64,000 bases of DNA from Auanema rhodensis (Eukaryota; Animalia; Nematoda), in NCBI GenBank assembly GCA_964057225.1, contig OZ059899.1:11160001-11224000 (forward strand), given 5' to 3'. Position numbers and translations under genes: made by a program. The stretch's first letter is position 1, and every line of letters starts with the position of its first letter. Under the pieces are notes generated by a model that was not told the DNA's origin, made no database searches, and was given only the letters and a program-made list of their open reading frames with translations. This document shows positions 1 through 54,747 of the stretch, piece by piece.

Positions 1-3000
1 CAACTTTCTACTAGCGAACGCAATCGGGTGTAATGGAGAATTTTTCTCTGCTGATTGCAATAAAACTGCTCCCACAGCGATCATACTGCCATCACTTTCT
101 ATAACAAAAGGTTGGTCTGCTTTAGGAGGTTTCAGTACAGGGGCAGTACACAGTAATGTTTTTAAAGTTTTAAATGCGTCTGCATGTTCCGATTTCCACT
201 CAAAAGGAGTATCCTTATGTGTTAACTTATACAATGGCTCCGCTATTTCGGCATAATTTTGAATAAACCGTCGAAAATAGTTAGTCATACCTAGAAAGGA
301 TCTAACAGCCGTAACTGTACTTAACTTTGGAAATTCGGAAACAGCCTCTATCTTAGCAGGATCTGGTTTAACACCATTTCTACCTATTACAAAACCCAAA
401 AACTTTACTTCAGTGGCTGCAAAGCAGCATTTAGATAACTTAATTTTTAACCCTAGTTCAGTGACCTTTTTCAGCACTTCTTGTATATCTCTTAAATGTT
501 CTTCAGCTGAGTTCGAAATTATTAGCAAATCATCTAGATATACAAACAGTTTGCATCTAACAAGAGATTGCAAGTATCGTACTGCGGATTGAAAAGTGTG
601 TGGCGCTCCACACAATCCCATAGGCATTCGGCAATACTGATAGGTACCTGATGGAGTGGTAAAAGCAGTTAGGTATCTATCTGAGCGTTTCAACGGTATT
701 TGGAAGAAACCAGAAATGAGATCAAAATTCGAAAAGAACTGAGCTCCAGCCGCTAAGTCGATGATATCAGGAATGTGTGGGATGCTGTATGTTTGTTTCT
801 TAGTAACACTATTCAATGCTCTAAAGTCAGTAACGAACCGGAAAGAATTATCTTTCTTTTTCACAAGAACAACCGGACTAGTGAAAGTAGCCGTCGAATT
901 TTCGATTATACCTTGCGACAACATTTCTTTCACTTGCCGTTCTACTTCTTCTTGCTTACCCAATGGTACTCTGTAAGATCTACTTTTTGGAAAATCCATA
1001 TCAGATCTTATAGGAATGGCATGTTCAACTGGTCCGCAAAAGAGACCAATATTATGATCATGGTTGAAAAATGCCGTTTGGTTTTCCTTAATGATTGTGA
1101 TCAGATTTTTCTTCATTTTATGGGACAGAGTGCAAGAATTGAAGTTCAAATCATCCAAAAGATGCTGAGGAAAAGTTGGTAACTTATCTTCCCAATCAGC
1201 TTCAGGTGGAACATAATCGTACATAATTTCTTTAGATGCTATAAGTCCTGAACCAATGTGGTCATTTTTATTAATTTTAATTGGCTTTGAAGAATTGTTT
1301 GATACTACCATAGTAATAGGAAAAGGTCCTATGGCGGCATCTGGAATTGAGATAGGACCTGTGCTAGATTTTAAAAGAGCATATTGATCAAAATCTAATT
1401 CTGGTCCTGTTTGCAAAGATATATGGGAGGTACTGTGTGGTGGAACTGTTACTGTGGACAAACTTATGATATTTACTGTTTTAGTTGTGGTTTTATATGC
1501 AAAACGACCAGGTTTTACCAAAGGTGTTTCCATATTACCAACAATCAACTTGCCTTTACATAGTTTTAATGTAGTAAATATCTCTCTTTCTTCCAACGTA
1601 CGCATAAAATCAGTACCAAGTAACATTTGTCCTGGACAGTCATTGTCTTCAGATATTAAAAATTCGTGTTCCACTTGGTAACCTGCTATACCCACATCTA
1701 ACTTGCATTTTCCCACAAAGCGAAACTCTGATCCATTTGCAGTGGATGCAGATTTAGAATATTTTGTAAAATATTGTCTTCCAATATATGCCAATGTGGA
1801 GAACGGAATATATGAGACCGTAGCTCCAGAATCCCATAATGCTAACAGTCCTCTACCTTCAATGTCAATATGAACAAACGGTAACATGTGTCCATTTTTC
1901 TTTGTTGTTGTGTGACATACAAAAGGTATGGCTAAAGGAATGTAAGTTATGATGGTGGGAAAATAGCTCCGCATCAATTCATCACTAACTGTTTCATGAA
2001 TCTCATCTCCCTCAAGTGGGGGAGCTGTTGGGCTCAACATGATATGGTTTATTTTTAACATAGAAGTAGGGGAGAGATAACATTTTATAGTGAAATATAA
2101 TGCTATCATTAGACATAATATCAGAGTTATACAACCGATGGTAATGAGTGTTCGTTCAATTGAACCTATACAAAAGTCAATGAACAGATCCCAATTGGAG
2201 AAAACAATTTTCCTGGCATCTCTTATAAGTTTACTTCCTTTGAAGATGAAAGAGGAAATTTGAGGCCAATCACGTGAACGAGAAATTACGCGGAGAAGAT
2301 CATGGTGAGGAGAAGTAGATAAACTATAACCATAAGTTAATCCAATAGATAGGGCTAAGGATTTTTCAGTCGAATTTTCAAACAAATTCCGCCCTGTGAA
2401 TCGAAGTTTACTCAATTCAGCATAATGATCATGTTTTTCTGAATGAATACTATCTACTTTATGTGTGTCACCTTTATAATCTCTCCATGTTCCATTTTCA
2501 TACCAAATCTCTGTCTCTTTGTGTTCACAATTGATCTCATGTCCTTCAGTGCTCAAATCGTAGCTATCGATAGGAGCAAAGAATAATTGTTTATCGTGTG
2601 TTAAAACAGGGGTCTCTGCATAACATTTATCATTGTAAGAATGATTACGATAAATGAAATGTGGTTCTATTTCCTGACAAGTTGTTATTTTTAAAACATT
2701 TCTTCCAACAAATCGGGCAACGATATCATCCCGCTGAAGCATAGCTCTTACTCCTATTGTAGGATGTATACGTAATATAGCTTGCCAGCTTTTTACAGTT
2801 TCCATTTGAGATTTACAGATGGTATGAAACTGTTGATGAAATTCGTCAATTATGGAGAGACGCGCTTTCTCAAACCCATAATTCAACTTATTATCTATTA
2901 TCGTTTTAGTTTTAAGCTCTGATTTGTGGAGAACATTGTCATATACTTCTGCTACATACAACTCTCGACCTCTCTCGTACGCATTAGGGGTAGGAGTTGT

Positions 3001-5964
3001 TAAACTACGAATTGTAGTTTTGGTGGCAGTTATTGGGGTTACAGTAGTATGCTGTACCATATTTTTATCAGTTGTGATTTGAGTTTTAACCCAACTTATA
3101 AATTCTAAAACTTCTGTTTTATTGAATTTAGGATTTTCCTGTGGGTATTCGATGGACTGTGGAGGAAATCCATAATATGCTGTACTATTCTTTGTATAAA
3201 GGTTGTGATAGTCAGGCAGCTTGGATATAATTGCTAAATCTTGCTCTTGGTTATTTCTAACAGTAGCATCAGCTTTTTGTTGTCGACTGACTTGCATGTC
3301 ACGAGATATTTGTTCTTTTCCCGATTGTTGTTGGATCATGAATAACATGCCTTGAGCAGTTGCAATAATTTCAGATTGATTCATATTTCCACTGCGTGGT
3401 AATATAGATGGATATAAGGCTCTTGCCAACTGTTCAATTGATGGAACTGTTTGTGTACCATCAAGAATTGTGGCTTGATATACTACTGCGTGAGCCATTC
3501 CTCGAAAGAAATCTTCTATGGATGTTGTAGATTTCATCAAAGATCTTTTTAACCGAGGAACTTCTATACGACGAGCTACTTGAGTGATAAGATCATCCAA
3601 TTTCATGCTATTAATCATCTGTCTAGTAGCCAGTTTAATTTCCTCTATACCCATACATTGTAAAATCAAAAGATTGGGATCTTTGAAATTATTAGACTTT
3701 GCCCAGTTAGTTATATGATCTTTTGTCAATCCTAAACTAACAATTGTGTCAATGAACAGTGGATTATCTATCGCGAATTGGAGCAAACTCTCATAAGATG
3801 ATGTAGCTGCATATCTCATATATTTTGCGTAAAACTTAGTGATAGATGCAGATCCAAAAATGAAAGTAGGTCTTAGAAATGGAAACGCATATGGTTGGGA
3901 TTTCGCATTAACAAAAAGATAATCATCACTGAAAGAGCGATGTTTTTTTGAGGTAATGCATTACGTTTATTTCTGCGTCTATCAGCATTAAGCAAAGTAT
4001 TGGAAAGATCAAGCAAATTATAAACACGGGGATATGCTGTGAATCGGATAATTGCCTCAGAAGATGATTCAAAAACAGCGAATTCGAAACAAGATTGAAC
4101 GTGAGCGGATGTGGAATGATTTTGGAGAACAAAAGCGCTTTCAATAGAGTGAACTAGAAGAATATGATCACCCAACATGGCGGAGAAGGGGCCAAGTTTT
4201 TGATAGTGACAGACAACTGATAGGATAGGTGGTTGCCAGATAACTGCACCTTCACCAGTTGCACAAAACCCTTCATTTCCTTTACAATTATCAGTATTTA
4301 TAAATAAGTCTGATACAATGTGATCTTCTTTCAATCTAGTTATTATCCCTCGCTTCAATACAAATTGTTCAATTTCTACACATTCTTCAGTGGACCAAGA
4401 GCGAGTTGGATTATGCTCGTTTAATGGTGTTTCAAAAACTGAATGCTGTTGGGCATTCATGATTTTATCATTCCACATACGATTTCTATGTGCTCGAACA
4501 CAATCTTTCTTATCTACTGTTTCAATATGAGAGAATGTGGTGTTACGATCTCTCAAAAACATGAAATCTCTCACACAGCTTTTATACTTTTTCACATAGC
4601 ATTTCCATGCTTCCCATGACTCTATCTCAGCCTTTGGTAGATATATTTCTACCTCAACACTGTGAGCCTTTTCAATTTCTGCCTTATGGCAGCCTGTGAC
4701 CACAGGAGGTGTTACTAATATACCCCCTTTCAAATTGAGCGCAAATCTGATATTTTGCCGACCCAAAGGGAAGGCATGAGAGTGCCAATAAAGTCAGGCA
4801 CAACGTGACCGGTGGCATGAATGGGGTCGCTACGCTGTATACCCTTGAGTTACCATTCCCATTGGCTGATGGTCTTTGTCTTCTTGGGGAACTAGGCCTA
4901 GGGTTCCAAGACGAGCTATTGGCATTTCTGCCATTGGCAAATGGGCGGTTTCCCGGGTTAGGACGCCTATTCATATTCCCGTTCTGCGAGTTATTATTAT
5001 TATAACGTACGGCAGAAGGTCGCTCTCTCTCTCGCTCATAATCATTAGAGCCATTATTGTGCTGAGTCCAGTTATTATTTTTTTTATTATTTTTATTATT
5101 TTTATAATTTTTATTATTATTATTATTCCTACTTCTTTCTCTTTCTTCACTAAAGCTTAATTTATGTTGTAAAGCATTTATGAGCTCCTTCAAGGTGCTG
5201 GTGTCTTCATTTCTTTTCATGAAGCTATTCCGAACGCCTTCTTCAAACCTAGCTAATTTCTTAGCTTGTTCATAAGTGGCGGGGTTTTTAGTTAAAACCG
5301 CAATACCCAGTTCCTCTTTTAAACCATTTAAAAATGCCGTTTTCAACATTGGTTCCCGCTCGGGATCCATTGGTGACATTATGGTGCTTGCCATTCTCTC
5401 TAATTCCATACTAAAATCGAGAACAGATTTATCTCCTTGTTGTATTCGATGAATAAGCGCTATGGTGAAATTTTTATCTGTTTTAGGCGCTAAAAGCTCA
5501 GTGAGCTGATCCATCAAAACAATCCATGGGCCATTAGTTCTTATGCCACTAGGAATACTATTATACAAGGAGAGAGCTGTTTCATTTGATTCCAAAAGAA
5601 GAGGTAAAATTAATAGTCTCTCAGGTAAACTTAGATTCATAACATTAAAAAATCTATTTAAAGATTCAACAAAAGAACGAAAGCTACGAGAGCCGTCATA
5701 CCTGGGACAGAGATGGCAATTCAAAATAGTTGCCATATTTCTAGAGGGTGGTGCAACATTAGAATTAGGAGATGGAGAGGTAGGAGTCATTTTTCTTTCA
5801 AAAGCTTTAGTTATAGCAGCGGCCCACCGACTTGGTGATCTATTTCGTACTGTAGTAGGTGCCCGAGGTGTTTCCTCTGTGATGGCCTTTCTGCTTTTAC
5901 TTCTCGTTCTAATTGTTAGAGAAGAAGAATGAGAAGAAGAAGAGGAATCACCTTCTTCTCTCAA
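1..5964 (-). pseudogene. Element A Gag-Env-Pol polyprotein with two homopolymer frameshifts (Gag, Env, PR, RT and start of RNase H in window)
   Basis: ORFs 4684-5964 and 3873-4766 match B aa 1-~690. There is +1 nt at ~4729 and +2 nt at ~3945 relative to B. The ORF track shows no stop-terminated minus-strand ORF in 1-3870, consistent with a frame open to the edge. Confidence 0.85.
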
Positions 5965-7104
5965 AAATTCAAAAGGAGAGAGGTAGGTGGATGGAGTATT
6001 TAAGTTTTTAGAATTAAATTCAAAAACTTGGCGTACCTCTGGTGATCCTTGTTCCTGATCTTTGTTTTCCTCGCTGATGTCCGAGTCCGACAGGGTGGCT
6101 GGTGAATACAGTTAGATGAATATAAGAGCGCGTACTGGAAGCAACTAGACTCCAGTAAAAACGTTTGTGACAATGGCGTCTGATGAAGGAGGATCGTTGA
6201 AGCTTCAAGCTCCGCCTCCAGCCATGTGTCACGACACCAGATGTTAGCGCTTATGGTAAACAACCATTGACCGTCTGTCGTGATATTTGAATATTATAAT
6301 CACTTATGTCAGCTTAGAGACAAATAAGGAATCACAGATGGTGCCTTAAGCCTGTTTGAAAACTTTTGAATTTTAACAGCTGTTATTGACTACACATATC
6401 GAACAGCTGGTACGCGTGGGCCAACTATTTGAATGTGAGTAAGCTTAAAGTAAACAAAAATGTCTCATCTCGTATATTAAGTTCAATTTTATAAAGTTTA
6501 TTAAGATTTGTAGAAAGAATTTCAAAATAAATCTTAATTAAGATAATTTTTAATTTAATTTCAAAAGATTTAGAAGGTAATTTAAGATTGATATAGGAAT
6601 TTAAATTCAGTAATCTGTCAATAATATAGGAAAACGGAAACGTTGGCAGACGTAGAGTGGACTTGGGTGGGTAGGAATTTAAATATTCTTATTATCTCTG
6701 AACTAATAAGAAAAGAGTTAACAGGAGTAGAACCCTGATGAACCCTTGGATGTGAATCAAAATCAAAAAATCGTAAATAAAATTATCCCAACAGCCTCCA
6801 GCTTCCAAACAACTCAGCTAAAAAGTGAGCTCTGTTGCCACACTGGACATTCACATCATAAAGTAATGAATCAAAATAGCACGCGCGTGCATAACAAAAA
6901 GGTAACGCTCGTCAAAACTATTGTCTGATAGTTTCCCCAAACGTCTCAGACACCTCCCAGTTTTCGTTGAGCGGAGGAGAAGTGGTAGCCAAAATAATTT
7001 TTGGGGAAATCATGGTGCACGGCTCGGTTACTCCTCACTGTTGGGTAATTAAGTCCAAAAGTCTCGTAAACTTGCTGTCAATAAATTAACAGTAGAGTAA
7101 GCAA

Positions 7105-7117
7105 GGTGGAACCTCCA
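7105..7117 (-). promoter_or_regulatory. Primer-binding site of element A (tRNA-Gln 3' end)
   Basis: TGGAGGTTCCACC on the minus strand, directly next to the LTR; complementary to ...GGTGGAACCT-CCA of eukaryotic tRNA-Gln. Confidence 0.85.
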
Positions 7118-7502
7118 CGTTACATATTGTTTCTTCCCGTCTTTTCATGGTCGGAAGATATATGTACTTCTACCTTGTTCCTTAGGTAGGCAGACCCGAA
7201 CGCCCCGATTTCCTTATTAAGACAAATACTTAAAGAGAAAAAGATTCATTATCAGATAACAAGAAAATACAATATAAGAATTACATTAAGAAAGAATATA
7301 AAGAGATCTAATAAAGTATTAAATAGAGTATATATATATATAGATGATATAGAGATGAGACTCACATGGCTATAAGACAACCTATCTGGGTTAGGCCAGA
7401 AGCAAGAGTGCCATGTGTGTCCCATGTTGTGGGCGGGGCTTGTTCAGGCTCCCGCTATTTGAATAGCGCGCACATGTTTACCATGTGCTTGCAGATGTGA
7501 CA
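7118..7502 (-). repeat. 5' LTR of element A (385 bp, TG...CG)
   Basis: Reverse complement of the B LTR with a few substitutions and a (TA)n run 4 nt longer. Confidence 0.95.
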
Positions 7503-7644: not shown

Positions 7645-7648
7645 TATT

Positions 7649-15728: not shown

Positions 15729-15835
15729 TACGAAAGTACGAAATAACAAAGCGCTGATTATAGGAAACGTGAATGAATGCAGATATTCTCAATTCCGATT
15801 TATTAACTAGATCGTGGTCAGCATTTTACAACATT

Positions 15836-16216
15836 TGTCACATCTGCAAGCACATGGTAAACATGTGCGCGCTATTCAAATAGCGGGAGCCTGAACAAGC
15901 CCCGCCCACAACATGGGACACACATGGCACTCTTGCTTCTGGCCTAACCCAGATAGGTTGTCTTATAGCCATGTGAGTCTCATCTCTATATCATCTATAT
16001 ATATACTCTATTTAATACTTTTTTAGATCTCTTTATAATCTTTCTTAATGTAATTCTTATATTGTATTTTCTTGTTATCTGATAATGAATCCTTTTCTCT
16101 TTAAGTATTTGTCTTAATAAGGAAATCGGGGCGTTCGGGTCTGCCTACCTAAGGAACAAGGTAGAAGTACATATATCTTCCGACCATGAAAAGACGGGAA
16201 GAAACAATATGTAACG
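15836..16216 (+). repeat. 5' LTR of element B (TGTCACAT...ATGTAACG)
   Basis: Direct repeat of 25578-25958. Confidence 0.97.
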
Positions 16217-16229
16217 TGGAGGTTCCACC
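16217..16229 (+). promoter_or_regulatory. PBS of element B (tRNA-Gln)
   Basis: TGGAGGTTCCACC directly after the 5' LTR. Confidence 0.85.
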
Positions 16230-17368
16230 TTGCTTACTTTACTGTTAATTTATTGACATCAAGTTTACGAGACTTTTGGACTTAATTACCCAACAGTGAG
16301 GAGTAACCGAGCCGTGCACCATGATTTCCCCAAAAATTATTTTGGCTACCACTTCTCCTCCGCTCAACGAAAACTGGGAGGTGTCTGAGACGTTTGGGGA
16401 AACTATCAGACAATAGTTTTGACGAGCGTTACCTTTTTGTTATGCACGCGCGTGCTATTTTGATTCATTACTTTATGATGTGAATGTCCAGTGTGGCAAC
16501 AGAGCTCACTTTTTAGCTGAGTTGTTTGGAAGCTGGAGGCTGTTGGGATAATTTTATTTACGATTTTTGATTTTGATTCACATCCAAGGGTTCATCAGGG
16601 TTCTACTCCTGTTAACTCTTTTCTTATTAGTTCAGAGATAATAAGAATATTTAAATTCCTACCCACCCAAGTCCACTCTACGTCTGCCAACGTTTCCTTT
16701 TTCCTATATTATTGACAGATTACTGAATTTAAATTCCTATATCAATCTTAAATTACCTTCTAAATCTTTTGAAATTAAATTAAAAATTATCTTAATTAAG
16801 ATTTATTTTGAAATTCTTTCTACAAATCTTAATAAACTTTATAAAATTGAACTTAATATACGAGATGAGACATTTTTGTTTACTTTAAGCTTACTCACAT
16901 TCAAATAGTTGGCCCACGCGTACCAGCTGTTCGACATGTGTAGTCAATAACAGCTGTTAAAATTCAAAAGTTTTCAAACAGGCTTAAGGCACCATCTGTG
17001 ATTCCTTATTTGTCTCTAAGCTGACATTAGTGATTATAATATTCAAATATCACGACAGACGGTCAATGGTTGTTTACCATAAGCGCTAACATCTGGTGTC
17101 GTGACACATGGCTGGAGGCGGAGCTTGAAGCTTCAACGATCCTCCTTCATCAGACGCCATTGTCACAAACGTTTTTACTGGAGTCTAGTTGCTTCCAGTA
17201 CGCGCTCTTATATTCATCTAACTGTATTCACCAGCCACCCTGTCGGACTCGGACATCAGCGAGGAAAACAAAGATCAGGAACAAGGATCACCAGAGGTAC
17301 GCCAAGTTTTTGAATTTAATTCTAAAAACTTAAATACTCCATCCACCTACCTCTCTCCTTTTGAATTT

Positions 17369-20300
17369 TTGAGAGAAGAAGGTGATTCCTCTTCTTCTTC
17401 TCACTCTTCTTCTCTAACAATTAGAACGAGAAGTAAAAGCAGAAAGGCCATCACTGAGGAAACACCTCGGGCACCTACTACAGTACGAAATAGATCACCA
17501 AGTCGGTGGGCCGCTGCTATAACTAAAGCTTTTGAAAGAAAAATGACTCCTACCTCTCCATCTCCTAATTCTAATGTTGCTCCACCCTCTAGAAATATGG
17601 CAACTATTTTGAATTGTCATCTCTGTCCCAGGTATGACGGCTCTCGTAGCTTTCGTTCTTTTGTTGAATCTTTAAATAGAATTTTTAATGTTATGAATCT
17701 AAGCTTACCTGAGAGACTATTAATTTTGCCTCTTCTTTTGGAATCAAATGAAACAGCTCTCTCCTTGTATAATAGTATTCCTAGTGGCATAAGAACTAAT
17801 GGCCCATGGATTGTTTTGATGGATCAGCTCACTGAGCTTTTAGCGCCTAAAACAGATAAAAATTTCACCATAGCGCTTATTCATCGAATACAACAAGGAG
17901 ATAAATCTGTTCTCGATTTTAGTATGGAATTAGAGAGAATGGCAAGCACCATAATGTCACCAATGGATCCCGAGCGGGAACCAATGTTGAAAACGGCATT
18001 TTTAAATGGTTTAAAAGAGGAACTGGGTATTGCGGTTTTAACTAAAAACCCCGCCACTTATGAACAAGCTAAGAAATTAGCTAGGTTTGAAGAAGGCGTT
18101 CGGAATAGCTTCATGAAAAGAAATGAAGACACCAGCACCTTGAAGGAGCTCATAAATGCTTTACAACATAAATTAAGCTTTAGTGAAGAAAGAGAAAGAA
18201 GTAGGAATAATAATAATAATAAAAATTATAAAAATAATAAAAATAATAAAAAAAATAATAACTGGACTCAGCACAATAATGGCTCTAATGATTATGAGCG
18301 AGAGAGAGAGCGACCTTCTGCCGTACGTTATAATAATAATAACTCGCAGAACGGGAATATGAATAGGCGTCCTAACCCGGGAAACCGCCCATTTGCCAAT
18401 GGCAGAAATGCCAATAGCTCGTCTTGGAACCCTAGGCCTAGTTCCCCAAGAAGACAAAGACCATCAGCCAATGGGAATGGTAACTCAAGGGTATACAGCG
18501 TAGCGACCCCATTCATGCCACCGGTCACGTTGTGCCTGACTTTATTGGCACTCTCATGCCTTCCCTTTGGGTCGGCAAAATATCAGATTTGCGCTCAATC
18601 TGAAGGGGGTATATTAGTAACACCTCCTGTGGTCACAGGCTGCCATAAGGCAGAAATTGAAAAGGCTCACAGTGTTGAGGTAGAAATATATCTACCAAAG
18701 GCTGAGATAGAGTCATGGGAAGCATGGAAATGCTATGTGAAAAAGTATAAAAGCTGTGTGAGAGATTTCATGTTTTTGAGAGATCGTAACACCACATTCT
18801 CTCATATTGAAACAGTAGATAAGAAAGATTGTGTTCGAGCACATAGAAATCGTATGTGGAATGATAAAATCATGAATGCCCAACAGCATTCAGTTTTTGA
18901 AACACCATTAAACGAGCATAATCCAACTCGCTCTTGGTCCACTGAAGAATGTGTAGAAATTGAACAATTTGTATTGAAGCGAGGGATAATAACTAGATTG
19001 AAAGAAGATCACATTGTATCAGACTTATTTATAAATACTGATAATTGTAAAGGAAATGAAGGGTTTTGTGCAACTGGTGAAGGTGCAGTTATCTGGCAAC
19101 CACCTATCCCATCAGTTGTCTGTCACTATCAAAAACTTGGCCCCTTCTCCGCCATGTTGGGTGATCATATTCTTCTAGTTCACTCTATTGAAAGCGCTTT
19201 TGTTCTCCAAAATCATTCCACATCCGCTCACGTTCAATCTTGTTTCGAATTCGCTGTTTTTGAATCATCTTCTGAGGCAATTATCCGATTCACAGCATAT
19301 CCCCGTGTTTATAATTTGCTTGATCTTTCCAATACTTTGCTTAATGCTGATAGACGCAGAAATAAACGTAATGCATTACCTCAAAAACATCGCTCTTTCA
19401 GTGATGATTATCTTTTTGTTAATGCGAAATCCCAACCATATGCGTTTCCATTTCTAAGACCTACTTTCATTTTTGGATCTGCATCTATCACTAAGTTTTA
19501 CGCAAAATATATGAGATATGCAGCTACATCATCTTATGAGAGTTTGCTCCAATTCGCGATAGATAATCCACTGTTCATTGACACAATTGTTAGTTTAGGA
19601 TTGACAAAAGATCACATAACTAACTGGGCGAAGTCTAATAATTTCAAAGATCCCAATCTTTTGATTTTACAATGTATGGGTATAGAGGAAATTAAACTGG
19701 CTACTAGACAGGTGATTAATAGCATGAAATTGGATGATCTTATCACTCAAGTAGCTCGTCGTATAGAAGTTCCTCGGTTAAAAAGATCGTTGATGAAATC
19801 TACAACATCCATAGAAGACTTCTTTCGAGGAATGGCTCACGCAGTAGTATATCAAGCCACAATTCTTGATGGTACACAAACAGTTCCATCAATCGAACAG
19901 TTGGCAAGAGCCTTATATCCATCTATATTACCACGCAGTGGAAATATGAATCAATCTGAAATTATTGCAACTGCTCAAGGCATGTTATTCATGATCCGAC
20001 AACAATCGGGAAAAGAACAAATATCTCGTGACATGCAAGTCAGTCGACAACAAAAAGCTGATGCTACTGTTAGAAACAACCAAGAGCAAGATTTAGCAAT
20101 TATATCCAAGCTGCCTGACTATCACAACCTTTATACAAAGAATAGTACAGCATATTATGGATTTCCTCCACAGTCCATCGAATACCCACAGGAAAATCCT
20201 AAATTCAATAAAACAGAAGTTTTAGAATTTATAAGTTGGGTTAAAACTCAAATCACAACTGATAAAAATATGGTACAGCATACTACTGTAACCCCAATAA

Positions 20301-23300
20301 CTGCCACCAAAACTACAATTCGTAGTTTAACAACTCCTACCCCTAATGCGTACGAGAGAGGTCGAGAGTTGTATGTAGCAGAAGTATATGACAATGTTCT
20401 CCACAAATCAGAGCTTAAAACTAAAACGATAATAGATAATAAGTTGAATTATGGGTTTGAGAAAGCGCGTCTCTCCATAATTGACGAATTTCATCAACAG
20501 TTTCATACCATCTGTAAATCTCAAATGGAAACTGTAAAAAGCTGGCAAGCTATATTACGTATACATCCTACAATAGGAGTAAGAGCTATGCTTCAGCGGG
20601 ATGATATCGTTGCCCGATTTGTTGGAAGAAATGTTTTAAAAATAACAACTTGTCAGGAAATAGAACCACATTTCATTTATCGTAATCATTCTTACAATGA
20701 TAAATGTTATGCAGAGACCCCTGTTTTAACACACGATAAACAATTATTCTTTGCTCCTATCGATAGCTACGATTTGAGCACTGAAGGACATGAGATCAAT
20801 TGTGAACACAAAGAGACAGAAATTTGGTATGAAAATGGAACATGGAGAGATTATAAAGGTGACACACATAAAGTAGATAGTATTCATTCAGAAAAACATG
20901 ATCATTATGCTGAATTGAGTAAACTTCGATTCACAGGGCGGAATTTGTTTGAAAATTCGACTGAAAAATCCTTAGCCCTATCTATTGGATTAACTTATGG
21001 TTATAGTTTATCTACTTCACCTCACCATGATCTTCTCCGCGTAATTTCTCGTTCACGTGATTGGCCTCAAATTTCCTCTTTCATCTTCAAAGGAAGTAAA
21101 CTTATAAGAGATGCCAGGAAAATTGTTTTCTCCAATTGGGATCTGTTCATTGACTTTTGTATAGGTTCAATTGAACGAACACTCATTACCATCGGTTGTA
21201 TAACTCTGATATTATGTCTAATGATAGCATTATATTTCACTATAAAATGTTATCTCTCCCCTACTTCTATGTTAAAAATAAACCATATCATGTTGAGCCC
21301 AACAGCTCCACCACTTGAGGGAGATGAGATTCATGAAACAGTTAGTGATGAATTGATGCGGAGCTATTTTCCCACCATAATAACTTACATTCCTTTAGCC
21401 ATACCTTTTGTATGTCACACAACAACAAAGAAAAATGGACACATGTTACCGTTTGTTCATATTGACATTGAAGGTAGAGGACTGTTAGCATTATGGGATT
21501 CTGGAGCTACGGTCTCATATATTCCGTTCTCCACATTGGCATATATTGGAAGACAATATTTTACAAAATATTCTAAATCTGCATCCACTGCAAATGGATC
21601 AGAGTTTCGCTTTGTGGGAAAATGCAAGTTAGATGTGGGTATAGCAGGTTACCAAGTGGAACACGAATTTTTAATATCTGAAGACAATGACTGTCCAGGA
21701 CAAATGTTACTTGGTACCGATTTTATGCGTACGTTGGAAGAAAGAGAGATATTTACTACATCAAAACTATGTAAAGGAAAGTTGATTGTTGGTAATATGG
21801 AAACACCCTTAGTAAAACCTGGTTGTTTTGCATATAAAACCACAACTAAAACAGTAAATATCATAAGTTTGTCCACAGTAACAGTTCCACCACATAGTAC
21901 CTCCCACATATCTTTGCAAACAGGACCAGAATTAGATTTTGATCAATATGCTCTTTTAAAATCTAGCACAGGTCCTATATCAATTCCAGATGCCGCCATA
22001 GGACCTTTTCCTATTACTATGGTAGTATCAAACAATTCTTCAAAGCCAATTAAAATTAATAAAAATGACCACATTGGTTCAGGACTTATAGCATCTAAAG
22101 AAATTATGAACGATTATGTTCCACCTGAAGCTGATTGGGAAGATAAGTTACCAACTTTTCCTCAGCATCTTTTGGATGATTTGAACTTCAATTCTTGCAC
22201 TCTGTCTCATAAAATGAAGAAAAATCTGATCACAATCATTAAGGAAAACCAAACGGCATTTTTCAACCATGATCATAATATTGGTCTCTTTTGCGGACCA
22301 GTTGAACATGCCATTCCTATAAGATCTGATATGGATTTTCCAAAAAGTAGATCTTACAGAGTACCATTGGGTAAGCAAGAAGAAGTAGAACGGCAAGTGA
22401 AAGAAATGTTGTCGCAAGGTATAATCGAAAATTCGACGGCTACTTTCACTAGTCCAGTTGTTCTTGTGAAAAAGAAAGATAATTCTTTCCGGTTCGTTAC
22501 TGACTTTAGAGCATTGAATAGTGTTACTAAGAAACAAACATATAGCATCCCACACATTCCTGATATCATAGACTTAGCGGCTGGAGCTCAGTTCTTTTCG
22601 AATTTTGATCTCATTTCTGGTTTCTTCCAAATACCGTTGAAACGCTCAGATAGATACCTAACTGCTTTTACCACTCCATCAGGTACCTATCAGTATTGCC
22701 GAATGCCTATGGGATTGTGTGGAGCGCCACACACTTTTCAATCCGCAGTACGATACTTGCAATCTCTTGTTAGATGCAAACTGTTTGTATATCTAGATGA
22801 TTTGCTAATAATTTCGAACTCAGCTGAAGAACATTTAAGAGATATACAAGAAGTGCTGAAAAAGGTCACTGAACTAGGGTTAAAAATTAAGTTATCTAAA
22901 TGTTGCTTTGCAGCCACTGAAGTAAAGTTTTTGGGTTTTATAATAGGTAGAAATGGTGTTAAACCAGATCCTGCTAAAATACAGGCTGTTTCCGAATTTC
23001 CAAATCCAAGCACAGTTACGGCTGTCAGATCCTTTCTAGGTATGACTAACTATTTTCGACGGTTTATTCAAAATTATGCCGGAATAGCTGAGCCATTGTA
23101 TAAGTTAACACATAAGGATACTCCTTTTGAGTGGAAATCGGAACATGCAGACGCATTTAAAACTTTAAAAACATTACTGTGTACTGCCCCTGTACTGAAA
23201 CCTCCTAAAGCAGACCAACCTTTTGTTATAGAAAGTGATGGCAGTATGATCGCTGTGGGAGCAGTTTTATTACAATCAGCAGAGAAAAATTCTCCATTAC

Positions 23301-25577: not shown

Positions 25578-25958
25578 TGTCACATCTGCAAGCACATGGT
25601 AAACATGTGCGCGCTATTCAAATAGCGGGAGCCTGAACAAGCCCCGCCCACAACATGGGACACACATGGCACTCTTGCTTCTGGCCTAACCCAGATAGGT
25701 TGTCTTATAGCCATGTGAGTCTCATCTCTATATCATCTATATATATACTCTATTTAATACTTTTTTAGATCTCTTTATAATCTTTCTTAATGTAATTCTT
25801 ATATTGTATTTTCTTGTTATCTGATAATGAATCCTTTTCTCTTTAAGTATTTGTCTTAATAAGGAAATCGGGGCGTTCGGGTCTGCCTACCTAAGGAACA
25901 AGGTAGAAGTACATATATCTTCCGACCATGAAAAGACGGGAAGAAACAATATGTAACG
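25578..25958 (+). repeat. 3' LTR of element B
   Basis: No difference from the 5' LTR seen by eye. Confidence 0.97.
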
Positions 25959-36255: not shown

Positions 36256-36613
36256 CGTTCCATTCGGATGATCAATGCATTACATTCATATGACGAAGCT
36301 GTAGCAGGCGGGTTAGAGTCAGAGAATGCGAGACTGAGAGAAGACGACCCGCCCTTTTCCATATTACAACACTTCAGCTTTGCCTCAGGGACGATCATGG
36401 ATGGTTGGTCGTTCTCTCTCTGTTCTCTATTAGTTTAACCTTTACTTAGTTATATGTATCTTATTGTAATCACGTAGATATAATAAACCAATCTTTCTCG
36501 AGTCTTATGTTTATCCTTATGCTCCATGTTTAACCGCTACATCTGGAATACTACCACGCTCATCTTGTAGACTCCATTGGTCTGTAAGATCGACGCGGGA
36601 GCATAACGGAACG
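36256..36613 (+). repeat. 5' LTR of element C (CGTTCC...GGAACG)
   Basis: Direct repeat of 46535-46892; contains AATAAA. Confidence 0.97.
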
Positions 36614-36626
36614 TGGAGGTTCCACC
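36614..36626 (+). promoter_or_regulatory. PBS of element C (tRNA-Gln)
   Basis: TGGAGGTTCCACC, identical to A and B. Confidence 0.85.
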
Positions 36627-38118
36627 TCGAACTTATCACAATTTTTTTCCTTCTCTTTAATGTTTGTGTTGTTAATTCATTTTCAAATTTCTTTCATCTC
36701 TCTTTTTCTCATACCATCTACTCTATGTCTTAACACAATACGGAGGGGCCAACAACGTTAAATGGGAACAGAGGCAAGGAATCCTTTTTTTTTTAAAGAA
36801 GGATTATACGTTTCGAGATTATTATTTTCCCGTTTGTTCACAAAAATTCTTTCGTCTGAACCTTTAAATTTCGTATCCTTGCTTATAACATCTGAAATGC
36901 TCTGTTACCCAACCTTGAAGCTTGATGAGGGCTTTAGGCTGAATTAGTGAACAAATTCACCTAAAGTAATTGTTATTTCGTATTTCCCACGCTTTCTCCT
37001 TTTTAAGGATTAATTTTGGCTTCAAGGAAAGAATAACTTCGGTTATATCTTTATATTTCGTGGATGAAGTTTGTTTTGCGATCAGGACTATTTTATTTTG
37101 CGTTACGATTTCGTTCAGACAAATTTTGCTTCTAACATCTTAAATTTATAATCAGTACGCATGAAAAAAATTACACGGGAAACCTCACCAAAAAGGGAGG
37201 ATTGTTAATTTATAGATCGCTATAGTCCGAAAAATCCTGTTGAAAAATGTTATCTCGAATTTGAATCATGATTAACACAGGTCGTGTTGGCTAAAGCATA
37301 TCGGTTTGGATTTTCTCCCCTTACTGAATGTCACCTTCCTCATACCGTTATTGTTGTTCAGAAGCATAAGACTCACGCATTGAACCTTATTCCAACTTTA
37401 ATACTAGTTCTTGTAATATTTAGCCATTTAACTCTGCTTTTATTTCAAAATTCGATTTCTGATCACGAAATACCTACATTCATCATTGCGAAACGCTCTT
37501 TTGTAAAACTAATATTACGAATCCCATGACTTTTGTTACAACGAAACATGCGAGCTACACCAAATGTATTTGAAAACCAGATTGTAAAGAAACAAAAATT
37601 ATTTTTGGTGACAAAAGAGAAATTGGTGCACATTTATTGTTAAACTGCTCTTTTATCAAAAGCATGTTACGAATTACACCATAAGTTTTGTTGCAAGATG
37701 ACACACCACATGGCCGAGAAACTAGTGTAACAAAACATAAGTTTAGTCAGCATGAGGAAAATGGTTGCATACAAATCAGTAAAATGTGCTGTAATTGAAC
37801 GAATATTACGAATTACACTAAACGTTTTGTAAAATAACAGCTTGGTCACCCCAGATGTTTTGTGAATCAGATTTTCAACTACAGAGAAAATACGGAGAGC
37901 ACCAGAGTCCCGATATCACACAGTAGAAGGCGGATCCATCGCCATTGGCCAAGGCATCGACCTCATTCTCACAAGTTGTCGATACGACACCGGTCGCTCT
38001 CCAAAGCCTTTCTCATTTTGCCTACATCCTCATCCTTATTCACCGCATTCTTTAACGTCTCAACATCCCACACGTTACCAAGCACTCAAGGTTTTTTCAA
38101 ACCAAGAGTTCTAGCAAG

Positions 38119-41100
38119 GTGGCTAAGAGATTCCATTCAGCCGTACCTATAAGTACGCATTTCGATTCCCAAGACTCAGCTCCCTTTACCAGAAGTCGAG
38201 CTCGAGCTCAAGACGTCGCTATATTAGAAGAGGAGCAGAAAGTCGACAAGAAGCCGGATAATTTCCTTATTCCTACTACCGATTCTGTCTCACCTACTGA
38301 ACAACTAGGCGACCCGGACTACGTACCTACTATAGAAGAAGAACTATCAATCATTGTGGAGGAACAAACACCGATCACTCCTAAAAAGGTACGCTCCTCT
38401 AATTCTAATAAAAATAAGAAAAATCAAAACATCAGCGACGCTTCTCTCTCTCTCTCACTAACTGAACCAACCGATTCCCCTTTACTTTCAAAAACTTCTA
38501 GCGCGGGTGGGCTTAGTTCTCTTAGAAACATTGTTACTGATCTTTTTAACCTTTCGCCTAAAGATAAAACTTTCAACACCAAGCGCAAAAGCAGATATTC
38601 ATCAGTCCCTAACATTAATATCTCACCAATTCAACCACCTGCACCAAATACCAGTATTCATCAAACTTTTACTCCCATCTTAACAACAACAGACTCACTT
38701 CCTAAGGCACCCAATAGACCTATTCCATCCACGCAAACAACCCCTATTTTGGAGACCCCACCAATAACAGGTAGAACGATCAAAATACCATCTACCCGTA
38801 CGAATAACATCATGACGGAAGCTGTTTCCTCACTACCTGGGGCAGGGAAAACAACAATCGCGCAAGCCTTACTTTCGCCTTACTGTCCAACTTACGACGG
38901 CAGTCGTAACTTCCGTGATTTTACGGGTAAATTCAACTTGTTTGCTAATGCCATTGGCCTTGTTATCCCTGAAAGGTTAGCACTTCTTCCTTTGCTTCTC
39001 AAAAATGAAGCAGCAGAAGAAGCTTACAGACAAGTTCCTGAACAACTTAAAACAACTGGTTCGTGGAATGATCTGATTAGAGCACTAACATCGAAGCTCT
39101 GCCCTGAATATAACCAAGACCCTGCACTTATTAACCTTCAAAACACCACGCAAGGGGAATTGACAATTGATGCATACGCCCAAGCATTAAGAACAATGGC
39201 ATTGAGTGCATTTGCATCTGATGACCCACATAAAGATCAAATACTGAGATCAACATTCCTCAGAGGACTTAAAAATTCTCTAAAACCAGCTGTGATCCGA
39301 GCAAAGCCAAAATCCTTCACAGAAGCGATTGAAGCAGCTCGCTGGGAGGAATCGATAGTGAACCAAACAACAGACACGCAATCGATGTTGGTCAACGCTG
39401 TGAACAAAGCACTAGCACCCTTTGCGCGTAATGATGAGAGACGAGATAGCCAAACATTTAATCGCAATTATCAACGCGATAACCAAATGATAAGAAATAA
39501 TCAAAATTATCAAAATAATCAAAATTATCAAAATTATCAAAAAAATAAAAACTTTTCTAATTTCAATAATAATCGAAACCGTTACGGTTCTTTCGCTAAT
39601 AATAATCGCCGTACAAATTATAACGAACAAGATAATAGGCAATCGAGTTCTGATTGGCATCAAAGAAATTATAATTTTCGTCATAACAACCAACGAGGTA
39701 GATTCAATAACAACAACGGACAAAGAAGAGTTCAATTCAAAAATCCAAGAGACAACTCAAGAGGAAGAGATAGAAGCTCAACAAGAATAAACTCTGTCAC
39801 CCTTTCGCCTTTGACGCTCACAGTTATCATGGCAATAACAGCAGCAATATTCTTGCCCTGTGCATCTACATATCAAATCTGTACAAGAGCAACAGGAGGC
39901 GCATTACTTATGCCACCAACAATCAGAAAATGCAGATTAACAGAGAAAAACCATGTGCTACGTACAGAAGTTCATCTGTACACAAGAAATCACACAGCAC
40001 ACGAATGGGATGCGTGGCGTTGTTCAGAGGAAGTACACAAGTTATGCGTACGAGACCTGCTATTCCTCCGCGATACGAACAGAACAATAAATAGAATACA
40101 GCCTATAGGAGAGCGCGAATGCAGACAGGCGATCCGCGATCGCAAGTGGAATAACATAGAACTGCAACGCATTGATAGTATCACCCAAGCAACTCCGGAG
40201 CCCTCCTATGACCCAGCGCGCGCGTTCAACCGCGACGCGTGCGAGGAGCGGTCACGTCTAATATTAGAGCGCGGAGTCATGACCCGTATGCCTGACGATA
40301 CAATATTGTCAAACTTAATATTAAACACGGAAGGATGCAATGCACATCATGGTAATTGTGAATCAAGTACATCAATAATAATATGGGACCCACAAACCAC
40401 TGCTTCACGTTGTAATTACATCGATATGCATACATATGACGCTATCATTAGTCAAGATACTATTTTAATCCCTAGTACACAATCGGCACTTATTCTTTCG
40501 AGCAAACCAACTCCGAAACCTATTTCTTCTTGCTTCAGGCAGCCAGCGTTCCATACGACATCAGGAAATTATATCATTCTTCCTAAATTTCCAAACGACA
40601 ACAATATAACCACCCTTATTGAAAGAGAGTTCAAAAAGCTGCCGTTTAAAAGACCAAAACGTGCAGTCACCGAAGGATATTCTTTCCCACTGGATCAAGA
40701 TCGGATCAACGAAGTTGAAGATTATGAAACAGTATTGCTTCACGTCTGTCCATATACTTTCCTAAGACCATTAATGAGTAATCCCGGTATTACTTCAATT
40801 ATTCCTATAATCAAAGGAAGACGTTTAGTAGATCCAACATACTCTCTAAAGGCATGGATAACATCACATAAAGAAAAATTCGAATTTTTCTTCAGAATTC
40901 AAATAAATGAACATTCTGTTCGACATTTTCTCAAGCAATACGATTTCAGTGATAAAGAAGAAGCTCTGCTATATTATATAGCACAAAGAGAATTAGCCAT
41001 TACTACAAAGGCAGCAATATCATACTTAACATCTGAACAGCTTCTCGAACAAATATCAGATCGTTTGACAGTAATCGAATTCGATGAAATCATAAGGAAG

Positions 41101-42078
41101 AAAGAAGGTTCATATCGCGAACGAATTGAAAGCATAGCTCTCAATTTAACCAATACACCAGTTATAATTGAAGAAGGACTGACAGTTCCATCACGACAAG
41201 AAGTCCTACAAACGTTCATACAAATGCCACCAATAAGGAAACGTATACTAACTGACGAGGAAGAGAAGAAAAGCGAATTCATTAAGGCAACGATCAATTT
41301 ACTAAGAGAACTAAAAACCCTCACAACAGTACGATGGAATAAAACTGCAGCATTTATTGATGACAGAAAATTTATAAAATTGCCAGCATCACGACAATTC
41401 ATGCCAAATACAGATAAACTATTTTATGACAGGAAGAATAATTATGGAATACCGATCGGCCCACACCCTAAGCTGATCAAGCCCAGCAATCTTTCAAAGA
41501 AATTATTATTGGAAATATTTTTACCCCTGCTCAATAATGTAAAAACACCTTATACATCGAGTAGGATAACACAAGAACAACTTCAAATCTTAATGGCAGA
41601 GAAAAATGAAACAAATTTTCGGCAAATCGCAACGCGGACATCCAGCGTCGCGGCAGGCGGCGCGGCTAGCGTCGCTGCAGGCGGCGCGGCTAGCGGCGCG
41701 GTTGTGACACCAGTCCAACCTTTGATCGAACAGAAGGGAACAATCCAATCAGTTACCACAATACAGCCGCATATAACGAACAATCCTCACACAAATGCAA
41801 CAACCACCACAAGAGCACCATCATGGAGGCAACAGCCATCAACAACGGCGCCTCACACGACCGCTGCGACAACAGCACGCACAACAACATCAACCGCTCG
41901 TTCGCCAACAACAACAAGAAGCTATGCCATATACAAAGACGCACAGATTCCAAAAATACAAGAGACAACCGAAGCCTCTCCAACATTGATTCGAAAAAAA
42001 CCGAGCTTCCTCAACACCATCAGTAGAAACCTCAAATTTAGTGGAAGCAAATGCGAGATACATAGCAACGAAAATTGA
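38119..42078 (+). CDS. Element C polyprotein, N-terminal part (Gag plus most of the Env ectodomain), cut by a frameshift in the A7 run at 41994-42000
   Basis: Homologous to B and D: YCPTYDGSRNF, signal peptide then YQIC, furin-type KRPKR, Thr-rich region. Confidence 0.85.
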   Translation: MAKRFHSAVPISTHFDSQDSAPFTRSRARAQDVAILEEEQKVDKKPDNFLIPTTDSVSPTEQLGDPDYVPTIEEELSIIVEEQTPITPKKVRSSNSNKNKKNQNISDASLSLSLTEPTDSPLLSKTSSAGGLSSLRNIVTDLFNLSPKDKTFNTKRKSRYSSVPNINISPIQPPAPNTSIHQTFTPILTTTDSLPKAPNRPIPSTQTTPILETPPITGRTIKIPSTRTNNIMTEAVSSLPGAGKTTIAQALLSPYCPTYDGSRNFRDFTGKFNLFANAIGLVIPERLALLPLLLKNEAAEEAYRQVPEQLKTTGSWNDLIRALTSKLCPEYNQDPALINLQNTTQGELTIDAYAQALRTMALSAFASDDPHKDQILRSTFLRGLKNSLKPAVIRAKPKSFTEAIEAARWEESIVNQTTDTQSMLVNAVNKALAPFARNDERRDSQTFNRNYQRDNQMIRNNQNYQNNQNYQNYQKNKNFSNFNNNRNRYGSFANNNRRTNYNEQDNRQSSSDWHQRNYNFRHNNQRGRFNNNNGQRRVQFKNPRDNSRGRDRSSTRINSVTLSPLTLTVIMAITAAIFLPCASTYQICTRATGGALLMPPTIRKCRLTEKNHVLRTEVHLYTRNHTAHEWDAWRCSEEVHKLCVRDLLFLRDTNRTINRIQPIGERECRQAIRDRKWNNIELQRIDSITQATPEPSYDPARAFNRDACEERSRLILERGVMTRMPDDTILSNLILNTEGCNAHHGNCESSTSIIIWDPQTTASRCNYIDMHTYDAIISQDTILIPSTQSALILSSKPTPKPISSCFRQPAFHTTSGNYIILPKFPNDNNITTLIEREFKKLPFKRPKRAVTEGYSFPLDQDRINEVEDYETVLLHVCPYTFLRPLMSNPGITSIIPIIKGRRLVDPTYSLKAWITSHKEKFEFFFRIQINEHSVRHFLKQYDFSDKEEALLYYIAQRELAITTKAAISYLTSEQLLEQISDRLTVIEFDEIIRKKEGSYRERIESIALNLTNTPVIIEEGLTVPSRQEVLQTFIQMPPIRKRILTDEEEKKSEFIKATINLLRELKTLTTVRWNKTAAFIDDRKFIKLPASRQFMPNTDKLFYDRKNNYGIPIGPHPKLIKPSNLSKKLLLEIFLPLLNNVKTPYTSSRITQEQLQILMAEKNETNFRQIATRTSSVAAGGAASVAAGGAASGAVVTPVQPLIEQKGTIQSVTTIQPHITNNPHTNATTTTRAPSWRQQPSTTAPHTTAATTARTTTSTARSPTTTRSYAIYKDAQIPKIQETTEASPTLIRKKPSFLNTISRNLKFSGSKCEIHSNEN

Positions 42079-45892: not shown

Positions 45893-46523
45893 AACACAAA
45901 TTTTGTAACGACTCCTCTAAAACAAGTCACTCTTAAGTCAAAAAGTAAACTAGAGCATAATGAACACGGGAAATGTGAGAAGATAATTCTTTTATCATAT
46001 AGTTCGAACCTTCCTAAATTCAACTAACTTCCCCATACTAGATGAGATGAAAAATGAAAGACATAGTTAGCAACAATATCTGAGCAACAGTCTTCACTTG
46101 AGTAATCAATGACTCAATTTGGAAGTTATTTGGTATTACGCAAAACTTTTCTTTTTTTTCTAAACTCACACAAATTGAAACAAACAACCGAGCTCTAGCA
46201 AAAAAATAGTTAACTTTTTATCTACACTTGTTGGAGCGTTATGCTTAAAAACTTTTTTTTTATTATTTTATAAGCACGTTCGCCAATAAAACATAGTCTA
46301 GTATTCGTTAAAGAGGGTTAAAACTTTCATAATTTGGTTAAAAAAAAAAAATTTTTTTTAATTCTTTTCAGATACTGATGTTTTATATTGTATTATGTTC
46401 ATATTATAAGAATTTTACGTAAAATATTGTATTGTAACATGTACTTTAATACACACATTAACCCTTCTGCTACAGTTAATCAAGTCAAAACTTTTGATTG
46501 TCGCGAGGACGCGACATAAACTC

Positions 46524-46534
46524 GAAAAAGGGCA
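46524..46534 (+). promoter_or_regulatory. Polypurine tract of element C
   Basis: GAAAAAGGGCA before the 3' LTR; identical in D. Confidence 0.8.
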
Positions 46535-46892
46535 CGTTCCATTCGGATGATCAATGCATTACATTCATATGACGAAGCTGTAGCAGGCGGGTTAGAGTCA
46601 GAGAATGCGAGACTGAGAGAAGACGACCCGCCCTTTTCCATATTACAACACTTCAGCTTTGCCTCAGGGACGATCATGGATGGTTGGTCGTTCTCTCTCT
46701 GTTCTCTATTAGTTTAACCTTTACTTAGTTATATGTATCTTATTGTAATCACGTAGATATAATAAACCAATCTTTCTCGAGTCTTATGTTTATCCTTATG
46801 CTCCATGTTTAACCGCTACATCTGGAATACTACCACGCTCATCTTGTAGACTCCATTGGTTTGTAAGATCGACGCGGGAGCATAACGGAACG
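46535..46892 (+). repeat. 3' LTR of element C
   Basis: Direct repeat of 36256-36613. Confidence 0.97.
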
Positions 46893-54736: not shown

Positions 54737-54747
54737 TGCCCTTTTTC
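54737..54747 (-). promoter_or_regulatory. Polypurine tract of element D
   Basis: GAAAAAGGGCA on the minus strand. Confidence 0.8.

Follow-up and report, generated by a model that had tools for sequence, protein, structure and literature searches.

How can a single polyprotein that begins with Gag and ends with integrase hold an envelope protein (Env) in its middle, and how would the parts be separated? The question is raised by element B, one of four long terminal repeat (LTR) elements (A, B, C, and D) that interrupt the tandem array of 667-bp units filling a 64,000-nucleotide stretch of DNA from the nematode Auanema rhodensis (assembly GCA_964057225.1, contig OZ059899.1, positions 11,160,001 to 11,224,000 of the forward strand). 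This whole stretch is referred to as the window, and all coordinates are those of the window (Table 1). To judge from its sequence, B is an intact-looking, young LTR element of the Ty3/gypsy type (Metaviridae). Its one long frame encodes, in this order, Gag, a signal-like segment, an Env resembling the glycoprotein B (gB) of herpesviruses, a transmembrane helix (TM), a short tail, the retropepsin (PR), a dUTPase-like domain, a reverse transcriptase (RT), an RNase H, and an integrase (IN).

The answer we favor, with a confidence only slightly better than even, is that the polyprotein of B spans the membrane of the endoplasmic reticulum (ER) at the internal signal and at the Env TM and is cut by signal peptidase, by furin, and by the protease of the element itself. 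What is read directly from the letters is the frame with its domains, the hydrophobic segments, and the enrichment of a short motif at certain positions; from these we infer all the steps of topology and cleavage. Gag (residues 1–320) would be made in the cytosol, after which the hydrophobic residues 321–345 would direct the chain to the ER and initiate its translocation. Signal peptidase would cut after GSA345, and Gag, with the signal retained, would stay anchored in the membrane up to a cut by PR near RVYSV. In the lumen the Env ectodomain would fold, forming about seven disulfides, and it would be cleaved at RNKR609. The TM (residues 1214–1234) would stop the transfer, so that the tail, PR, and the rest of Pol are cytosolic and tethered to Env. 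PR would then free itself and its neighbors at sites of the type [VI]-N-x-[VIL] located past the TM, some 27 residues ahead of the catalytic Asp, and between RNase H and IN, and it would also split Gag at LINAL.

Predicted membrane topology

The comparisons below use relatives found with the Env of B. An exhaustive search gave 247 database proteins with E ≤ 1e-3 (102 with E ≤ 1e-10), of which the best 150 were used; residues 300–1320 of B compared with database proteins of near length gave no match. An earlier note on this DNA, made from the sequence alone, had described a signal-like segment after Gag that ends in small residues and a TM before PR, and had placed Gag and Pol in the cytosol and Env in the ER lumen. 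Both hydrophobic segments are indeed present in B, C, and D. The signal-like segments have Kyte-Doolittle means over 19 residues (KD19) of 1.81, 2.05, and 2.24, respectively. They end in GSA|K (B), CAST|Y (C), and AEA|Y (D), directly followed by a conserved YQ[IL]C, and the residues at −3 and −1 fit a cut by signal peptidase. In 28 relatives the conserved Env N-terminus is preceded by 45 residues or more, and in 27 of these a hydrophobic 13-mer (mean ≥ 1.8) is found 16–28 residues ahead of it; an internal signal, as predicted in this way, is a trait of the whole family. Counts of charges according to the positive-inside rule were uninformative around both the signal and the TM. A separate start of Env at Met325 within the signal of B was considered and rejected, this Met being conserved in neither C nor D. 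Likewise rejected was a 2A-like skip: NPGP is absent, and the NPG tripeptides are at unrelated positions.

The ectodomain that follows the signal has the marks of a class III fusion protein of the gB type. Among the Pfam families, PF24664 exceeds its cut-off in A, C, and D, and PF00606 stays under its cut-off in all four elements. The AlphaFold model of the B ectodomain, made with a 48-row alignment, has a mean predicted local distance difference test score (pLDDT) of 71.3 and a predicted template-modelling score of 0.51. Its Foldseek matches at ranks 1–50 among those listed are all herpesvirus gB (best E 3.7e-11, probability 1.00), with template-modelling scores (TM-scores) that are low, 0.15–0.25. 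B, C, and D have 14 of 16 ectodomain cysteines in common at an identity of 22%, as compared with 7 of 20 cysteines in Pol at an identity of 48%; that the cysteines are kept despite so low an identity fits a disulfide-bonded, lumenal Env. RxKR is found at one aligned position (B 606, C 614, D 605) and is compatible with a predicted cleavage of Env by furin. The roughly 300 residues past the furin loop (19460–20350, ectodomain residues about 290–590) are mostly helical and modelled with lower confidence. This region, which is outside the gB-like high-confidence parts, may be a lineage-specific insert.

The TM has a KD19 of 2.63 in B, 2.66 in C, and 3.09 in D and precedes the DSG of PR by 85–105 residues. 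Of the 34 relatives that have a PR signature, 33 show a segment of KD19 ≥ 2.0 whose start is 82–290 residues ahead of the catalytic Asp, and the order TM, PR motif, YxDD is found in 15 of the 25 listed relatives of at least 1800 residues. This order, together with the TM before PR, indicates that the fused layout is a family trait.

Between TM and PR, about 45 residues past the TM, there is a third, proline-rich stretch (KD19 1.25 in B, 1.52 in C, 2.07 in D). If it were a second membrane span, Pol would be lumenal; alternatively, the stretch could form a hairpin. The KD19 values of 2.07 in D, 1.76 in the relative P0006, and 1.52 in C are what can be said for this. The stretch carries, however, 2–4 prolines, and its summed insertion energy is positive (+3.0 to +7.6). 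In the pre-PR region KD19 is below 1.6 in 33 of 35 proteins, D and P0006 being the exceptions, and the stretch with KD19 1.65 in P0008 is about 200 residues further upstream. In the model of B the third stretch is low-confidence coil, and a lumenal Pol would be unable to meet cytosolic Gag and RNA. We therefore consider a second span or a hairpin very improbable. Of 36 family members only three, including D, have a second stretch with KD19 ≥ 1.6 between TM and PR, each of these stretches being rich in proline; this rarity and the coil modelled for the tail of B argue that throughout the family a single membrane span lies between the Env ectodomain and PR. Prediction and comparison, namely the single TM, the conserved cysteines, and the gB-like fold, thus support a cytosolic location of Gag and Pol and a lumenal one of Env, as the earlier note had it.

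Candidate sites for the protease of the element

The AlphaFold model of residues 1200–1645 of B (mean pLDDT 77) contains a retropepsin fold, which Foldseek matches to the RVP domain of Ddi1 (E 1.6e-8, TM-score 0.78 on the target) and also to the PR of XMRV; the TM-scores on retropepsin targets reach 0.83. Between PR and RT follows a beta domain with Foldseek matches to dUTPases from plants, yeast, and human (E about 2e-4 to 5e-4), for which no Pfam family was reported in B.

Where such a protease would cut had been proposed on the basis of a motif, hydrophobic-[N/M/Y/C/A]-x-hydrophobic, said to recur at equivalent positions of B, C, and D. All six proposed triplets are present, and four are in exact register: LINAL/LVNAV/LVNAI in Gag, RVYSV/RINSV/RVNNL before the signal, KINHI/PVMHI/TVMHV after the TM, and TVNII/TVNLI/TVNII after PR. 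The pre-PR strings agree within one gap column, and those between RNase H and IN, FIAHI (B), QVNVV (C), and HINAI (D), are about 10 columns apart at most; in B, KVNPV just upstream of FIAHI is the better match. In its loose form, however, the motif occurs 39–46 times per polyprotein as compared with 41–48 times in shuffled sequences, and of its eight in-register triple matches four are within folded Gag, RT, or RNase H domains. By itself, the loose motif is therefore no proof of anything. The narrower form [VI][NM]x[VIL] gives only three in-register triple matches, all of them at proposed junctions, where also four of its seven occurrences in B (KVNPV included) and five of its eight in D are found.

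The relatives point to the same core. Averaged over the 34 that have a PR signature, [VI]N.[VIL] is found 0.0025 times per residue. At −30 to −21 before the catalytic Asp, where the N-terminus of a retropepsin is expected and where FVCH of B is found (at −30), it occurs 14 times in 11 proteins (0.8 expected), and at −60 to −51 it occurs 10 times in 10 proteins (0.8 expected). Over the whole interval from −65 to −20, which is 46 residues long and holds 2.8% of all residues, it is found 33 times in 20 of the 34 relatives, with 3.9 expected. As a control, the second residue of the motif was varied over all 20 amino acids in this interval: Asn was enriched 8.5-fold, the highest value of the 20, Pro, His, and Tyr 4.7–4.8-fold, Ala 3.2-fold, and Ser, Asp, Glu, and Gly about 1-fold. 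Of 28 relatives, 12 also have the strict [VI]Nx[VIL] upstream of the signal-like segment, where about 3 would be expected. The 35 or so residues past the conserved LSRY of RNase H contain it in 4 of 16 relatives, as compared with about 1.2 expected, and also in B, C, and D. After PR the signal in the relatives is weak, with four occurrences in each of two bins, and the post-PR site of B is doubtful because TVNII is within a confidently modelled beta strand. TVNII may be the last strand of PR, like TLNF|P in HIV-1, or it may be no site at all.

What stands of the proposal is thus the Asn-centered core, which is supported before the signal, after the TM, and before PR and weakly between RNase H and IN, with the post-PR site in doubt. 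The motif sites are candidate cuts by the protease of the element, known from their positional enrichment. A different reading, to which we give roughly one chance in a handful, is that [VI]-N-x-[VIL] represents docking or sorting signals in disordered linkers, sites for host proteases, or strands conserved for folding. Indeed, the motif is also found inside folded parts (INTL at B 2323, INLV at D 1405), TVNII belongs to a modelled strand, the scissile bond cannot be placed from sequence, and most retropepsins are not known to take Asn at P1. On the other hand, Asn at P2 is frequent in HIV-1 sites, the linkers around the motifs are otherwise unconserved and are coil in the model, and the motif peaks precisely at the place where the release of a retropepsin's own N-terminus is required (−30 to −21) and at other domain borders.

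Possible routes of Pol: on the Env tail or from a spliced RNA

If PR and the rest of Pol are tethered to Env, it is conceivable, although we put this forward only tentatively, that Env rather than Gag carries Pol: a disordered tail with a late motif would lie between two [VI]-N-x-[VIL] sites and continue into PR-RT-IN, Gag would be freed by the same grammar, and an RNA using the donor in the leader would tune the ratio. Entry of Pol into particles on the Env tail, as proposed in the earlier note, would follow from the frame only if the frame is translated as a whole. The late-type motif is PTAP in B, PPGY in D (residue 1295), and LPTY in C (residue 284 of its second piece). All three are at the same aligned position of the tail, each occurs once within its own polyprotein or open reading frame piece, and they are similar to the late-budding motifs known from retroviral Gag. 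P[TS]AP is found four times in the tails of 33 relatives, which hold 5.6% of the residues, and four times elsewhere (p = 5.6e-4).

The donor just mentioned comes from contigs. Four runs of one study match parts of B; that these are RNA runs is a guess made without a record, and parts of gag and env without contig cover were not taken as evidence. Contigs of two of the runs, X1 (depth 20.7) and X2 (depth 14.3), contain a joint 17294>21397 with GT..AG ends (cut +2) that skips 4102 nt; placed exactly, it connects 17296/17297 with 21398/21399. Both gag and env are lost in full across the joint, whose far end is five codons ahead of FVC|H; this hints at a spliced RNA lacking both genes. No ATG of the leader reads into pol, and the first in-frame ATG past the joint is that of Met1301. 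The idea that the exon-1 frame encodes a protein across the joints was rejected, as this frame has only 54–57 codons before a stop and is without a start codon. The joint contigs of X1 and X2 exit pol again after 26–43 nt, jumping to about 24716/24733. This second joint is without splice signals and falls in 17-nt near-repeat copies (21424–21441 and 24716–24733, 15 of 17 positions alike); it could be a template switch or come from a deleted derivative of B. Among the runs matching B there is no contig in which the joint exon continues into pol.

It could be, then, that a spliced subgenomic RNA (17296|21399) is the main source of Pol, with translation starting at Met1301, in which case the continuous frame would be a by-product and Pol would not be delivered by the Env tail. 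We think this unlikely, but not negligibly so. The GT..AG joint has good flanks and occurs in two runs, the contigs of X1 and X2 are the deepest of those placed on B, and no contig placed on B extends from the LTRs into the flanking array. The acceptor is within five codons of the predicted N-terminus of PR, and Met1301 is three residues before the modelled PR fold. A donor-like AG|GTAC[GA]C occurs once in each leader (B 17296, C 38388, D 63880), after similar codons, (S/T)P(E/K). It is joined in contigs, however, only for B, and C and D have neither an AG at the place equivalent to the acceptor nor a Met before the DSG. All four runs are from one study, and the joined form could also be a deleted DNA copy. 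Furthermore, an out-of-frame ATG at 21435 stands ahead of Met1301, the exon-1 frame is not joined to the pol frame, and none of the joint contigs, which leave pol via the near-repeat, continues into it. And the frame from env to pol is kept open in B, in D, and in 33 of 34 relatives, which would be unexpected if read-through were useless.

It should be noted that several points weigh against a membrane-spanning polyprotein cut by its own protease and carrying Pol on Env. Hydropathy and the −3/−1 rule are both crude, and sequons for N-glycosylation are not enriched in the ectodomain (0.9 per 100 residues versus 1.1–2.2 elsewhere). PPxY is found in none of the tails of 33 relatives. The loose motif is at chance frequency, with half of its conserved matches in folded domains, TVNII is inside a confident strand, and the pre-PR site is without Asn in B, C, and D. 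The 34 relatives represent fewer independent lineages, with about 7–8 subgroups, judged by eye, having the pre-PR motif, so that the enrichment counts overstate independence. An output of Gag, Env, and Pol in a ratio of 1:1:1 would be unusual for a retroelement, and the joint in B together with the donor-like sites in B, C, and D suggests that the full frame is not the sole message.

Gag-Env-Pol elements reverse the gene order of retroviruses. The literature consulted tells where such elements are found, not how a single chain would give rise to a capsid and enzymes in the cytosol and a fusion protein in the lumen, nor by what route Pol gets into particles. Should Env indeed carry Pol, this would be a third route of loading enzymes, besides the Gag-Pol fusion and a separate Pol. 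The three divergent elements and their relatives yield a testable map with one predicted signal-peptidase site, one predicted furin site, and one Asn-centered junction motif, which would mark the N-terminus of the protease and other cytosolic junctions. The map can guide the annotation of Gag-Env-Pol elements, and it turns the packaging of an Env-fused Pol into a matter of simple cleavage and topology assays. If the splice from leader to PR is real, Gag-Env-Pol elements also use subgenomic messages.

The locus and known systems

In all four elements Pfam finds a Gag domain, then PF00606/PF24664, then PR; the full order of families is Retrotrans_gag/Ty3_capsid, Glycoprotein_B (PF00606) with Monjiviricetes_fusion (PF24664), gag-asp_proteas, RVT_1, RT_RNaseH_2, Integrase_H2C2, and rve. 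The Gag matches are weak in B and clearer in C. For the PR-RT-RNase H-IN order of Ty3/gypsy elements the E values are 4.5e-35 (RVT_1), 9.1e-32 (RT_RNaseH_2), 6e-14 (Integrase_H2C2), and 2.7e-13 (rve). B also has LTRs, a polypurine tract, and a 4-bp target duplication, CATT, at both sides; ends and duplication were read from the sequence. A site like a primer-binding site, TGG..., is located downstream of the 5′ LTR; pairing of this site with the tRNA-Ile of the array was ruled out, there being no complementarity. D is 40% identical to B in protein and the two pieces of C 27% and 49%; C and D are families distinct from B. In C the frame changes between 42078 and 42149, and the integrase is shortened.

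Each 667-bp unit of the array contains one gene for tRNA-Ile(AAT), and ARAGORN called 38 of these in the window, all on the minus strand. The four elements, which belong to at least two divergent families and all bear env, are inserted in this array at points that differ in their phase relative to the unit. It may be that they target tRNA genes or that the array is a place where landing is tolerated. The leaders are free of stops in the gag frame over 107 codons in B (17222–17542), 252 in C (38056–38811), and at least 286 in D (63142–63999, minus strand). They are free of ATG in all frames over the last 435 nt (B), 957 nt (C), and at least 859 nt (D) before the gag ATG, with none found in the D leader where 10.7 are expected. 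Such leaders hint that initiation depends on scanning or uses a codon other than AUG, or that Gag is extended at its N-terminus.

Table 1. Features of the window (nucleotide positions in the window; residues of the B polyprotein).
Feature	Nucleotides	Strand	Residues	Remarks
Element A	1..7502	−		another copy of the B family (identity 99.2% over 7502 nt); frame in three pieces
tRNA-Ile(AAT) array stretches	7503-15835, 25959-36255, 46887-54370	− (tRNA genes)		ARAGORN
Element B	15836-25958	+		single 2477-codon frame, ATG 17543 to 24976
5′ LTR of B	15836..16216	+		381 bp, TGTCAC...GTAACG, 100% identical to 25578-25958
Donor-like site, B leader	17290..17303	+		GAG|GTACGC; exon end 17296, 247 nt before gag ATG
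Gag of B	17543..18487	+		capsid-like domain, then N/R-rich basic region; Pfam Retrotrans_gag, Ty3_capsid
LINAL, candidate internal Gag site	18149-18163	+	203-207	in register with LVNAV (C), LVNAI (D)
RVYSV, candidate own-protease site on cytosolic side of signal	18488..18502	+	316-320	aligned with RINSV (C), RVNNL (D)
Signal-like segment, predicted signal-peptidase site	18503..18577	+	321-345	ATPFMPPVTLCLTLLALSCLPFGSA|KYQIC
Env ectodomain, gB-like class III fusion protein	18578..21181	+	346-1213	Pfam, AlphaFold, Foldseek
RNKR, furin-type site	19358-19369	+	606-609	start of low-confidence model loop
Env TM	21182..21244	+	1214-1234	KD19 2.63; helix at residues 1201-1238 in AlphaFold model
Cytoplasmic tail and spacer	21245..21421	+	1235-1293	coil, pLDDT < 50 (residues 1242-1298, AlphaFold)
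KINHI, candidate post-TM site	21275-21289	+		aligned with PVMHI (C), TVMHV (D)
PTAP	21299-21310	+		in tail spacer
Proline-rich hydrophobic stretch	21368-21415	+	1276-1291	holds the pre-PR motif
Acceptor-like site	21385..21400	+		TTCCTTTAG|CC; exon start 21399, codon 1286
FVCHT, candidate pre-PR site	21407-21421	+		LVCSI (C), FVASI (D)
Retropepsin (PR)	21443..21730	+		Pfam gag-asp_proteas at residues 1306-1396; fold from about residue 1304
Catalytic DSG of PR	21497-21505	+	1319-1321	Met1301 at nt 21443
dUTPase-like beta domain	21830..22102	+	about 1430-1520	between PR and RT; Foldseek
TVNII, doubtful post-PR site	21851-21865	+		first dUTPase-like strand, model residues 231-243, high pLDDT
RT	22466-22945	+		Pfam RVT_1
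RNase H	23132-23524	+		Pfam RT_RNaseH_2
RNase H/IN linker	KVNPV 23633-23647, FIAHI 23654-23668	+	2031-2035 (KVNPV)	between RNase H and integrase
Integrase	23882-24391	+		Pfam Integrase_H2C2, rve
3′ LTR of B	25578..25958	+		polypurine tract AAGGTGGGGGGA just upstream
Element C	36256..46886	+		same part order as B; LTRs 352 bp, 99.7% identical
Element D	54371..64000	−		runs off window end; single 2568-codon frame from ATG 63141; B-like part order

Among known systems, the topology proposed for B has its parallel in the structural polyproteins of flaviviruses, pestiviruses, and rubella virus, in which an internal signal comes after a cytosolic capsid and the lumenal glycoprotein is freed by signal peptidase. 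The capsid anchor of flaviviruses and the rubella capsid with its retained E2 signal are examples of a capsid on a retained signal anchor. Flaviviruses also use furin. In all these viruses the replication enzymes are cytosolic and freed by the viral protease. Polyproteins of this type, however, belong to unrelated RNA viruses and have a serine or cysteine protease and many membrane crossings; instead of an NS3-type serine protease and a class II E protein, B has a retropepsin and a class III Env. The term "Flavivirus-like," under which the topology had first been described, is fair as an analogy of mechanism but does not imply a relationship.

Foamy viruses (Spumaretrovirinae) make Pol from its own spliced mRNA, and a splice from the leader to a point before PR would likewise give B a Pol message independent of Gag. 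Unlike in foamy viruses, the pol frame of B is continuous with env, the joint is found only in short contigs that do not continue along pol, and the start codon is not conserved in C and D.

A single frame is also known from Atlas virus, which is flanked by LTRs and encodes a Gag-Pol-Env polyprotein of 2828 residues with a fusion glycoprotein (Merchant et al., 2022, PMC9094657). Atlas virus and related nematode belpaoviruses differ from B in having a Bel/Pao-type Pol and a phlebovirus-like class II Env (PMC9094657). Their Env is C-terminal, after the integrase, whereas that of B is between Gag and PR. Since the Atlas virus chain includes the fusion glycoprotein, part of it must cross a membrane, as is predicted for B.

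Both gene orders seem to occur within the Env family of B itself: the relatives P0032, P0077, P0080, and P0084 have the same Env type far downstream, after an integrase-like HHCC motif. In P0072, too, it is far downstream, with no match to HHCC or YxDD by the patterns used. A 2022 study of "non-canonical nematode endogenous retroviruses" by Sacco et al. reportedly mentions a continuous gag-env-pro-pol frame in its abstract. No processing map for Gag-Env-Pol elements was found in the literature searched, which did not extend to that study or to the eLife supplements; in the main text of the eLife paper the words "polyprotein," "splicing," and "spliced" occur 0 times each (eLife 2026, PMC13524379). 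The Gag-Env-Pol elements of the Ty3/gypsy type from Nematoda, Bryozoa, and Platyhelminthes are termed "errantiviruses" in this paper and are described as carrying only gB-type Env, with the flipped gene order in nematodes credited to Sacco et al. (2022; J Gen Virol 103:1739) (PMC13524379). The segments on the two sides of their gB-type ectodomain are either a signal peptide and a TM or a pair of TMs, and some of the elements do not conserve the furin site (PMC13524379). The Gag-Env-Pol layout with a gB-type Env is thus already published and is not new, and B is no different in kind: it shares with these elements the Ty3/gypsy-type Pol, the gB-like class III Env, the position of env between gag and pol, the LTRs, and the multiple young copies.

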